DNA of 64,000 nt from Enterococcus phage CUB-FS. The translations under genes and the position numbers were made by a program. Of this stretch, positions 19,648 through 22,182 are shown piece by piece (within the stretch, counting starts at the first letter, position 1; every line of letters begins with the position of its first letter). Under the pieces are notes generated by a model. That model worked only from the letters and a program-made list of their open reading frames with translations, did not search any database and was not told the origin of the DNA. The DNA lies in sequence record PV646497.1; one strand, written 5' to 3'.

Positions 19648-22182
19648 ATGAGTCAAATTCAAAAACAAGTTATTTATAGAGCATTAAGTGAGCCATTCTT
19701 TGCAAAGGAAATTCTAAGTAAAATTCCAATGGATGAGTTTAAAGATTCTGGATATGAGATGATTGTTTCTACAATCAACTTATATTACAGAACACATGAT
19801 GAGAGCTTAGAGGAACAGAGTTTATTAACACTAGTAGAAGATAAGATGTTAAAACAAAACAAAAGTTTGGAAGCTCAAAACAAAGTCTTTGAGGTAGTTA
19901 GCGACTTATACGAACTAGAAAACGAAGATGTAGACTCAGAAGTTATCAGTGAGAACATTCAGAACTACGTTCGTAAGGTACTAACACGAGAAGCAATCAT
20001 GAAATCTGTAACAAATGAAGGCACACTAGGCTCTGATAGTAATATTCAACAGCTAATGGATGACTTGAGAGACATTCTTACTATCGAGACAGCAGGCAAT
20101 AATTCAGAATTGCTAGACTTCTTCGATGACGTAGATAAAAAGATGGAGTTACTTGCAAACTTGCAACAAAACAAATACCCAACTGGTTTCACAGCTATCG
20201 ATGCTATTTCCGATGGTGGGCTAGCTCGTGGAGAAGTCGGGATGGTTGTTGCGCCTACTGGTGGTGGTAAAGCATTAGTGGATAGCGAACCCGTAAAAAC
20301 ACCTAAAGGGGACATTGCTATTAAAGATTTAATTGTTGGTTCAGAGGTATATGGAACAGATGGTAAAATATATCAAGTAGCAGGTGTATTCCCACAAGGA
20401 AAACAAAAAGTCTATCAAGTAAGATTCTCTGATGGTACGATTGTAGAATGTAATGATGAACATATCTGGACGTATCAAACAAAAGCTATGCGTGGTTCTA
20501 ACAAAGATAACTGGGTAAGCAAAACATTACGAGAAATTATTGATACTGTACCTATTAAGGCTAACGGTGGGCAAAACATATATATTCCTATGGCACAGGC
20601 AGTTCCTTATTCACATAAACACTTTAGTTTACATCCTTACCTTATTGGTGCATTACTAGGGGATGGCGGACTTAGTGTAGAGTCTGGTTCCCTTACATTC
20701 ACTAATAGTGAAAGGGACTTAGTAGACAAAGTGAACAATTTACTGAGAGCTTACGATGTACACCTATCAAATAAAGGAAGTAAACCTAATGAGTATTGTG
20801 TTTCAGGTATAGATAGCTACCTACAAGCACAAGCATTTAATGCTAAACTATCTCAACTTGGTCTACGAGGTGTCCACTCAGACACTAAATTTATTCCACA
20901 GGAATACTTAAAAGGTTCTGTAGAGCAAAGATTAGACTTATTAGCAGGTTTAATTGATACAGACGGATATACACGAGGTTCATCTTACGTATATTATACA
21001 GTATCTGACCAATTGAAAGACGATGTAGTAGAACTTGTTAGTGGTTTAGGGATGACTGCTAAGGTATCCCAAAAAGTTTCTCCTAAGTACACATATAAAG
21101 GAGAACAACGTGTAGGTAAACTTTGTTGGGTTGTGTCTATTAAAACAACTGAAACCTTCCCTAAAATTCACACTACAAGCAAGCACGAAGCTCGATGGAA
21201 GAAAGGACAATCTTGGGCAAGAAGAACTATTGTAAGTATTGTGGAGACAGATAGAATGGAGTCTATGACATGTATTAGTGTGACTTCACCAAACAAATTA
21301 TTTTTAACTAGAAATTATGTAGCAACACATAATACTACTTGGGCAGTTAACCAAGCTAGAAACTATGTTGTACGTGGTTTAAATGTTCTTTATGTTCCTT
21401 TAGAGGAAAAAGTAGACCGTATGATTGTTCGTTTTGAACAATTATTATCACAACAAAGTAAGAAGAACATCTTAGTTGATGGTGAATTGAATAAAGACTT
21501 GTATACCCAAATCCAACAAGCGTATGGAGCGGGTAAAGAACAGATGAATTGGGGTAACCTTTGGATTCGTAAATATAAACCACAAGAGCTAACACCTAGC
21601 GGTTTATCTCAGTTAATCTCCGATGTAATGATTCGTAAAGGACAGCAAATTGATGTTGTCATTATTGACTACCCAGATTTAATGAAAAACCCTCATGCAA
21701 GCGGAAGTAATGGTGAATCAGATGCAGGAGGTAAACTATATGAAGATATTCGTGCAATTGCACAAGAGTATGATTTTGTTTGTTGGACGTTATCTCAGTT
21801 GAACCGAGCAAGCTATGGTCAAGATATTAAAAATGCAGGAGCTATCGAAGGTTCTAAACGTAAAATGAACGCAGTAGAACTTATTTTTACATTAAACCAA
21901 ACATCAGAGGAGTTTAGTAACGGATATTTGAGAGCTTACGTAGATAAGTTACGTAATAATAGTGGGATTGCCTATGATAAAATGTTGTATTTTAAAGTAC
22001 TCCCAGAAACTATGACTATTAGAGATGAAACACCAGAAGAACGAGCAGAACATGAAGCACTGTTAGCAGATAATGCGATGAATAGAGCAAGTAGCCACTC
22101 TGATGAGAATAACTACACAGCAAACGATGTTAATAAAAAGATAAGTAATTTGAATAATACCCTTTCAGGAGGTTGGAATTAA
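19648..22182 (+). CDS. dnaB: DnaB-like replicative helicase precursor containing an in-frame intein
   Basis: Exteins: the Walker A motif GGGK|T is restored after excision. The C-terminal extein carries DYPDLM and LSQLNRASYGQ DnaB-type motifs. The insert contains LAGLIDADG motifs. Confidence 0.75.
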   Translation: MSQIQKQVIYRALSEPFFAKEILSKIPMDEFKDSGYEMIVSTINLYYRTHDESLEEQSLLTLVEDKMLKQNKSLEAQNKVFEVVSDLYELENEDVDSEVISENIQNYVRKVLTREAIMKSVTNEGTLGSDSNIQQLMDDLRDILTIETAGNNSELLDFFDDVDKKMELLANLQQNKYPTGFTAIDAISDGGLARGEVGMVVAPTGGGKALVDSEPVKTPKGDIAIKDLIVGSEVYGTDGKIYQVAGVFPQGKQKVYQVRFSDGTIVECNDEHIWTYQTKAMRGSNKDNWVSKTLREIIDTVPIKANGGQNIYIPMAQAVPYSHKHFSLHPYLIGALLGDGGLSVESGSLTFTNSERDLVDKVNNLLRAYDVHLSNKGSKPNEYCVSGIDSYLQAQAFNAKLSQLGLRGVHSDTKFIPQEYLKGSVEQRLDLLAGLIDTDGYTRGSSYVYYTVSDQLKDDVVELVSGLGMTAKVSQKVSPKYTYKGEQRVGKLCWVVSIKTTETFPKIHTTSKHEARWKKGQSWARRTIVSIVETDRMESMTCISVTSPNKLFLTRNYVATHNTTWAVNQARNYVVRGLNVLYVPLEEKVDRMIVRFEQLLSQQSKKNILVDGELNKDLYTQIQQAYGAGKEQMNWGNLWIRKYKPQELTPSGLSQLISDVMIRKGQQIDVVIIDYPDLMKNPHASGSNGESDAGGKLYEDIRAIAQEYDFVCWTLSQLNRASYGQDIKNAGAIEGSKRKMNAVELIFTLNQTSEEFSNGYLRAYVDKLRNNSGIAYDKMLYFKVLPETMTIRDETPEERAEHEALLADNAMNRASSHSDENNYTANDVNKKISNLNNTLSGGWN
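20272..21333 (+). mobile_element. Intein (354 aa) with LAGLIDADG homing-endonuclease domain, inserted in the helicase P-loop
   Basis: Starts ALVDSEPVKTPKG (block A, Ala1). Carries LIGALLGDGGL and LLAGLIDTDGYT motifs. Ends YVATHN followed by Thr(+1). Removal gives APTGGGKT. Confidence 0.75.

Follow-up and report, generated by a model that had tools for sequence, protein, structure and literature searches.

Class 3 inteins have been defined by a non-nucleophilic residue at position 1, by Trp at B:12, Cys at F:4 and Thr at G:5, and by Ser or Thr at position +1 (Tori et al. 2010, PMC2807308). They reside in helicase-like proteins, mostly in the ATPase P-loop, and were first defined in a phage DnaB helicase (PMC2807308), with the Bethlehem DnaB intein (MP-Be DnaB) as the prototype. 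The insertion point between the invariant Lys and the nucleophilic Thr of the P-loop (K|T) has been called a 'classic' intein site (Kelley et al. 2016, PMC5050341). Here we analysed a stretch of 64,000 nucleotides from Enterococcus phage CUB-FS (PV646497.1; the whole stretch is called the window), in which the open reading frame (ORF) at 19648..22182 on the plus strand codes for a DnaB-like replicative helicase that is split by an in-frame element at 20272..21333 (+). We conclude that this element is very likely a bifunctional class 3 intein, combining protein splicing with a homing endonuclease, in the Walker A P-loop of the helicase.

The limits of the element were given by a natural empty allele. 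The gene gp045 of phage phiEF24C (1473 nt) corresponds to the ORF of the window minus exactly nt 20272-21333, and differs from the exteins of the window at 9 of 1473 nucleotides and at none of the 490 amino acids. According to the ORF listing and translation, the precursor has 844 amino acids (94.8 kDa). Its N-extein (19648..20271, +; 208 amino acids), which is collinear with nt 1-624 of gp045 with 3 mismatches, ends in the start of the Walker A motif, APTGGGK (20251-20271), and its C-extein (21334..22182, +; 282 amino acids and the stop codon), which is collinear with nt 625-1473 with 6 mismatches, begins with Thr+1 (21334-21336, +), the Thr of Walker A and the predicted splicing nucleophile. 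The intein in between, 1062 nt long and absent from phiEF24C over exactly this length, comprises ORF residues 209-562 (354 amino acids, 39.4 kDa, isoelectric point 8.9), lies in frame between the Lys and the Thr of Walker A (APTGGGK|T), starts with ALVDSEPVKTPKG and ends with YVATHN followed by Thr. With the insert removed, the flanks read ...VAPTGGGK-TTWAV..., which is a canonical [AG]xxxxGK[ST] Walker A motif. The nucleotide junction GGTAAA|ACTACT is unambiguous and allows no shift, even by one nucleotide. Because phiEF24C supplies an empty allele lacking exactly 1062 nt, the splice junctions are fixed, and no stronger evidence could be had from sequence alone that the element is dispensable, in frame and precisely bounded.

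The same contrast was observed more widely among 47 related phage records, 14 of which carried the whole gene, and the others aligned over a span exactly 1062 nt shorter; the exteins of the about 33 records without the insert were 99.3-99.7% identical. An RNA intron was ruled out as an explanation of the insert because the ORF runs through it without a break and its length is divisible by three, and an assembly artefact was ruled out because the insert is present in 14 independent records. The initial annotation had placed a 354-amino-acid insert, ending in YVATHN before a Thr, at these positions inside the Walker A motif of a DnaB-like helicase, with excision restoring GKT; the translation and the phiEF24C allele bear this out, and the sizes it predicted, ~54 kDa for the spliced helicase and ~40 kDa for the intein, are close to the calculated 55.4 and 39.4 kDa. 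Separately, positions 2940-3120 of a Kochikohdavirus record (PQ433353, vB_EfeBG-143) kept only the last ~90 nt of the intein. Nucleotides ~541-1598 of its helicase ORF were missing, including the region coding for Walker A, and the junction read ...CCAACTGG|AGACA...; many small indels and fragmented coding sequences were found in the neighbourhood. We set this record aside as probably a low-quality assembly, or possibly a defective gene or variant, and do not regard it as an informative excision product.

The host protein has the features of a DnaB-like replicative helicase, namely a RecA-type ATPase core, the Walker A motif APTGGGKT and the Walker B motif VVIID (21655-21669, +), which was read from the sequence and is also given in a GenBank note. 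The extein-only protein matched PHROG 19 'DnaB-like replicative helicase' with an E value of 1.3e-86, and Pfam DnaB_C was found in the precursor with 35 bits (cut-off 27; E 1.3e-8), the DnaB_C and AAA_25 matches being confined to the region downstream of the insert. The helicase is regarded as a divergent DnaB-like protein and not as an equivalog, because its NCBIfam phage_DnaB match was far under the cut-off. The gene is 99.8% identical to that of the 'putative DNA helicase' of vB_EfaH_EF1TV (Herelleviridae, Brockvirinae, Kochikohdavirus), a phage of the genus to which the window also belongs, and the note on the EF1TV coding sequence in GenBank already says "Intein/homing endonuclease". The presence of an intein is thus already flagged in one GenBank record, where its class and mobility are not. 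For annotation, the 844-amino-acid "helicase" should be corrected to a 490-amino-acid DnaB-like helicase plus a 354-amino-acid intein. Among other carriers, the intein-bearing helicase is labelled 'DarB-like antirestriction protein' in KEN04, KEN11, KEN16 and the RefSeq copy of EFP01, and 'helicase/primase' in phage 113 and EFP01. Both labels were likely carried over automatically, as artefacts, from PHROG families that contain inteins.

The residues that define class 3 were all found in the insert. The N-terminal half of the splicing (Hint) domain, supported by phmmer matches to solved inteins, covers residues ~1-110 with an approximate boundary (20272..20601, +), and the C-terminal half, supported by alignment with the Mycobacterium chimaera intein MchDnaB-1, covers residues ~311-354 (21202..21333, +). 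Position 1 is the non-nucleophilic Ala1 (20272-20274, +). Block B (20434-20475, +) reads NDEH and includes His64 at B:10 (20461-20463) and Trp66 at B:12 (20467-20469). Block F (21262-21309, +) holds Cys334 at F:4 (21271-21273) within MTCISV, the predicted nucleophile, and block G ends the intein with Thr352-His353-Asn354 (G:5-7; 21325-21333, +). The Trp66-Cys334-Thr352 (WCT) triplet, Ala1 and Thr+1 are therefore in place, as is the His353-Asn354 followed by Thr+1 that is expected of inteins in general. When the N-terminal half was compared with PDB sequences using phmmer, the split intein gp41-1 (E 5.6e-9), MchDnaB-1 (E 1.2e-6) and the M. smegmatis (Msm) class 3 DnaB intein 6BS8 (E 2e-4) were matched, and H-x-W was aligned in the gp41-1 and MchDnaB-1 alignments, the 6BS8 match being known by its score alone. 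At the other end, MTCISV...ATHN aligned with VRCVEV...PTHN of the class 3 intein MchDnaB-1, with H-x-W, the block F Cys and T-H-N in register.

These residues were also conserved among homologues. A search of 5.8 billion proteins gave 33 relatives, at most 47% identical, and the conservation figures refer to an alignment of 29 of them. Nearly all of the aligned relatives were inserted at GK|A...THN|T/S in the P-loops of PhoH-like, UvrD-like, IstB/DnaC-like, AAA_24, terminase and DnaB proteins. His64 and Asn354 were invariant, Trp66, Cys334, Thr352 and His353 were kept in ~90% or more, the WCT triplet was conserved in ~25 homologous inteins, and position 1 was Ala in 24 of the 26 homologues with an aligned residue there. 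The insert alone also matched intein-containing PHROGs, namely those of terminases, primases and helicases.

The initial annotation had taken Ala1 to imply either a class 3-like mechanism or direct attack. The latter would make the element a class 2 (KlbA-type) intein, in which the +1 residue attacks the N-terminal junction directly without a block F nucleophile, and Ala1 is indeed common to KlbA inteins. The KlbA-type inteins, however, lack the WCT triplet and usually have Asp at F:4, as in Mja KlbA, and the F:4 Cys was absolutely required for splicing in the Bethlehem prototype (PMC2807308). The intein in the window has Cys at F:4, Thr+1 and a full WCT triplet. Because this triplet lines up with that of the solved class 3 DnaB inteins and is joined by Ala1 and Thr+1, the element belongs, by its sequence, to class 3, with the class 2 signature absent; the class 3 part of the earlier proposal stands, and direct attack is highly improbable.

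Comparison with the described inteins places the element close to, and apart from, several of them. The Bethlehem intein shares with it the phage DnaB-type helicase host, the non-nucleophilic residue 1, the WCT triplet, His B:10, the terminal His-Asn and Thr+1, and is likewise a full-size intein (341 amino acids), its endonuclease domain lying between blocks B and F. Its residue 1 is Pro instead of Ala, and the insertion points of the two differ, because Bethlehem has Gln at -1, where the present intein has the Lys of Walker A. Bethlehem is an actinophage and the present host a Firmicute myovirus, and identity to mycobacteriophage inteins is just ~24-31%. Msm DnaBi1 and MchDnaB-1 (6BS8, 6RIX/6RIY) share class 3, the DnaB P-loop, Ala1 and a Walker A +1 Ser/Thr that doubles as the splicing nucleophile, and are the best structural matches to the Hint domain; they are cellular mini-inteins of ~139-145 amino acids without an endonuclease, in contrast to the intein here. 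In DnaBi1, block B is of the DxxH type and Cys48 and Cys118 form a redox switch; the present block B reads NDEH. The gp41-1 split intein of a cyanophage-like gp41 helicase (6QAZ, 6RIZ), the best sequence match to the N-terminal Hint half, likewise ends in THN and resides in a phage replicative helicase, but is naturally split, belongs to class 1 (Cys1), and has Asp at F:4 and Phe at B:12; 6RIZ is an engineered F65W/D107C class-3-like variant. The 'classic' P-loop inteins of terminases and ATPases (TerL1-a, PMC5050341) occupy the same K|T site in different host proteins.

The predicted structure agrees with an intein that carries a nested endonuclease. An AlphaFold2 model from the single sequence was unusable (predicted local distance difference test score, pLDDT, 35.9) and was replaced by a model on a 30-sequence alignment, which reached a pLDDT of 93.7 and a predicted template modelling score of 0.92. 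When the full-length model was compared with the PDB using Foldseek, PI-SceI (E 9e-17, query-normalised template modelling score (TM-score) ~0.68), TliVMA, PhoVMA and PI-PfuI were matched, as were VMA, DnaB, DnaE and Prp8 inteins, so the modelled splicing domain has the Hint fold. The Hint domain alone matched MchDnaB-1 best and then Msm DnaBi1, both of class 3. The endonuclease domain alone matched I-Tsp061I, I-DmoI and I-SceI, and also the endonuclease domains of PI-SceI and PI-PfuI, and its modelled secondary structure, a helix followed by strands, twice, shows the pseudo-dimeric alpha-beta-beta-alpha-beta-beta-alpha arrangement. From the full-length, Hint-only and endonuclease-only matches, the modelled architecture is therefore that of a LAGLIDADG endonuclease with two motifs, nested in a Hint domain (residues ~1-110 and 311-354). 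The same architecture is shared by PI-SceI (Sce VMA1), TliVMA, PhoVMA and PI-PfuI, with query-normalised TM-scores of 0.58-0.70. These are class 1 inteins (Cys1) of V-ATPase or ribonucleotide reductase, 12-18% identical to ours and larger (~430-454 amino acids), with extra DNA-recognition regions.

The LAGLIDADG homing-endonuclease domain covers residues ~111-300 with approximate boundaries (20602..21171, +), as supported by Pfam, a sequence match to PI-SceI and the fold matches. In the insert, Pfam LAGLIDADG_3 scored 44.7 bits (cut-off 22.5; E 1.6e-11) and Hom_end 26.6 bits (cut-off 21.1). Motif 1, PYLIGALLGDGGL (residues 122-134; 20635-20673, +), contains LIGALLGDG with the putative catalytic Asp131 (20662-20664), and motif 2, DLLAGLIDTDGYTR (residues 222-235; 20935-20976, +), contains LAGLIDTDG with the putative catalytic Asp231 (20962-20964). 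Both motif-terminal Asp residues are thus retained. The two motifs, the Pfam scores over the cut-offs, and the phmmer and Foldseek matches to inteins agree with what the initial annotation had proposed, an intein with a LAGLIDADG endonuclease.

To our reading, the distribution of the intein DNA indicates mobility. The 1062 nt of the intein are all identical in the Schiekvirus phage 113, in which the exteins are only 71% (446/624 nt, N-extein) and 77% (651/849 nt, C-extein) identical to those of the window; the identity starts 12 nt before the junction and stops 14 nt after it. Across the two genera Kochikohdavirus and Schiekvirus, the exteins differ at ~375 of 1473 nt (~25%), and Schiekvirus alleles without the intein were found in TJE1, EA1 and PEF1. 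In a pairwise difference matrix of eight intein alleles, the two Schiekvirus inteins were not mutual closest relatives: that of phage 113 was the window haplotype (0 differences), and that of EFP01 was 3 nt from Kochikohdavirus Ef2.1 and 13 from phage 113. These results point to two or more recent intergeneric transfers, which appear restricted to the intein. The same intein was present at the same site in a Schiekvirus-like contig of IMG/VR (L013; IMGVR_UViG_3300029212_000007, 1377-3911), which differed from phage 113 at 36 nt in the exteins and at 161 nt in the intein. Its intein is 13% diverged in amino acid sequence with every catalytic residue kept, and the contrast with phage 113 shows that two deep intein lineages circulate on near-identical helicase genes.

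Both parts of the intein appeared to be under constraint. Between the window and L013, the Nei-Gojobori ratio of non-synonymous to synonymous substitution rates (dN/dS) was 0.114 for the whole intein, 0.113 for the endonuclease domain and 0.083 for the exteins. The closer alleles had 18 synonymous-only and 15 non-synonymous variable codons, with 235 synonymous and 827 non-synonymous sites. None of the nine alleles (the eight and L013) contained a stop codon or a frameshift, and the catalytic residues were intact in all nine. These values indicate purifying selection that probably acts on both the splicing and the endonuclease activities, and together with the transfers they would form the footprint expected of endonuclease-driven homing. 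The putative homing site would consist of a left half at 20260..20271 (+) and a right half at 21334..21347 (+), reading GGTGGTGGTAAA|ACTACTTGGGCAGT in the empty allele. This stretch of 26 nt, 12 upstream of the junction and 14 downstream, shows no difference between filled and empty alleles or between the two genera, despite the ~25% divergence of the exteins, which would fit a homing site in a conserved stretch coding for the P-loop.

Beyond these genera, related inteins were found by tblastn in 811 phage records, mostly of mycobacteriophages and of Salmonella, Vibrio and Stx phages, and the relatives outside Brockvirinae were at most 37% identical in this search. The lineage at 87% identity or more has so far been seen in Brockvirinae helicases only. 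The closest metagenomic relatives (40-47% identical) occupied the K|T position in PhoH-like and UvrD-like proteins, and more distant ones (31-37%) the K|T position in IstB-like, AAA_24, terminase and DnaB proteins. A search of bacterial genomes gave only distant relatives, 34-39% identical, in metagenome-assembled genomes of Eremiobacterota/WPS-2 and Polynucleobacter, and no Enterococcus reservoir of the intein was found in it.

Two observations weigh against a bifunctional class 3 intein. Position 7 of block B is Asn, in contrast to the Asp of the DxxH motif in mycobacterial DnaBi1; homologues show C, S, N or D there, so the Asn is probably tolerated. In addition, a co-conversion tract around the junction was looked for and none was detectable, because the 26 flanking nucleotides are conserved in all alleles anyway, and homing is consequently deduced from phylogenetic incongruence alone. 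The missing tract would also suit an intein whose splicing works but whose endonuclease is dead or dying, and which persists by vertical descent and ordinary recombination between co-infecting phages. Such decay does occur in the family, since some homologues are without the catalytic Asp and show GNG or ANG in motif 1, and just ~14 of the 47 related records carry the intein. In the present alleles, however, both catalytic Asp residues are kept, and the endonuclease dN/dS of 0.113 is the same as that of the splicing domain. Two distinct haplotypes each occur in both genera on ~25% divergent exteins, and the exchange is limited to the intein and at most 12-14 nt per side, which is hard to achieve by random homologous recombination. 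We therefore consider a dead endonuclease improbable and favour the bifunctional class 3 intein with an active endonuclease.

The carriers themselves suggest that the precursor matures. Independent isolates of these lytic phages come from Italy, Kenya, the USA, China, Korea and Spain (cheese), and none was seen to have a second DnaB-like gene. Because all of them propagate as lytic phages without such a gene, the interrupted helicase must mature, and we infer from this viability that splicing must occur in the carriers. A splicing-dead relic, in which the helicase tolerates the insert or is non-functional, has precedents in intein pseudogenes such as Arth_1007 of Arthrobacter FB24, with WDT for WCT (PMC3196547). 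It would have to be reconciled with viable lytic phages from six countries, with catalytic residues intact in nine alleles, one of them 13% diverged under purifying selection, and with a 354-amino-acid insert between the Walker A Lys and Thr, which by analogy with the P-loop RadA intein (PMC6195587) would be incompatible with nucleotide binding. We give this possibility hardly any weight, the least of the alternatives.

For the favoured bifunctional class 3 intein, a pathway can be proposed by analogy with the steps established for two class 3 inteins, those of Bethlehem DnaB and M. smegmatis DnaBi1. The gene would be translated as a 95-kDa precursor with a split ATP-binding loop, and with the Lys and the Thr of Walker A lying 354 residues apart, this precursor would be unable to bind ATP. 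The split P-loop, together with the RadA and DnaBi1 inteins that also interrupt P-loops (PMC6195587), makes it reasonable to infer that the helicase has no activity before splicing. Because the Ala at position 1 has no nucleophile, Cys334 of block F is proposed to attack the Lys(-1)-Ala1 bond, aided by His64 and Trp66 of block B, giving a thioester-branched intermediate. Thr+1 would then take over the N-extein, cyclisation of Asn354 would release the 39-kDa intein, and an O-to-N acyl shift would yield the 55-kDa helicase with an intact GGGK-T P-loop. During co-infection, the freed intein would cut an empty helicase allele near GGTGGTGGTAAA|ACTACTTGGGCAGT, and recombinational repair would copy the intein into the cut allele.

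The element is a moderately divergent new intein of a well-known kind. It is ordinary for phages, because the K|T site is 'classic', class 3 was defined in a phage DnaB helicase, and relatives occur in the 811 phage records. The rarity implied by the initial annotation was accordingly over-rated: phage helicases are the archetypal class 3 hosts (PMC2807308), the site is a familiar one (PMC5050341), and the EF1TV record had already been flagged. In the literature searched for inteins in Enterococcus, Kochikohdavirus and Schiekvirus phages, no description of this intein was found, the available statements being generic remarks that spounavirus core genes bear introns and inteins.

The overall importance is modest, and lies partly in the system that the phages offer. 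Near-isogenic intein-plus and intein-less lytic Enterococcus phages, such as EF1TV and phiEF24C with exteins 99.4% identical, form a natural test system, and with the same intein also in a second genus, a full-length class 3 intein could be studied in a Gram-positive host for its homing, for marker exclusion and for its conditional splicing. The solved class 3 inteins among the PDB matches are cellular mini-inteins or engineered variants, and a full-length class 3 intein with a selected endonuclease would be a useful structural comparator. It is rather unlikely, in our estimate, that the intein is more than a selfish passenger in one or both of two further ways. As a weapon in mixed infections, the endonuclease could attack competing Brockvirinae phages that lack the intein, also those of the other genus, and cut their essential helicase gene, by analogy with the interference competition by an intron endonuclease shown in phage PhiPA3 (PMC11620839). 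Alternatively or in addition, Cys334-dependent splicing could depend on redox, zinc or temperature, as in mycobacterial DnaBi1, and so gate the onset of phage DNA replication. If true, either role would bear on how Enterococcus phage cocktails are designed, since therapeutic phages with and without the intein are often used together; phages in cocktails may swap the intein or compete via it.

No second, paralogous intein was detectable elsewhere in the window, and other intervening sequences were observed there. A group I intron was found at 38607-38863 (+; RF00028, 72.8 bits, E 1.4e-16) in a gene for a RecA/UvsX-like recombinase, flanked by the ORFs 38082..38621, with the P-loop GKNSSGKST, and 38930..39628; it contains no endonuclease ORF. 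A 440-nt intervening sequence without an ORF, at 34873-35312 (+), splits a gene for a PolA-type DNA polymerase between ...NFGIAYG and ESPFSIAPKLG.... The inserted sequence, whose length is not divisible by three, is preceded by U, ends in G and is precisely absent from Enterococcus phage A155, in which the polymerase is one coding sequence. Rfam Intron_gpI gave no detection on this insert even at E<=1; nucleotides 282-401 of the insert (the 3' core) share 83% identity with positions 38723-38842 of the group I intron. Its 5' half includes a match to 'drum' (RF02958) at 35044-35140 (52.8 bits, gathering threshold 43, E 5e-7), described as an orphan motif of unknown function for which a self-splicing role was thought unlikely (Weinberg et al. 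2017). Judged from these matches, the drum motif here appears to form one of the domains of a group I intron. After the polymerase, the ORF listing shows a 429-amino-acid ORF at 36708-37997 (+) with a long Gln/Pro-rich tandem repeat (QPVQPQFNQ) in its C-terminal half, the product of which may be a single-stranded DNA-binding-like protein.

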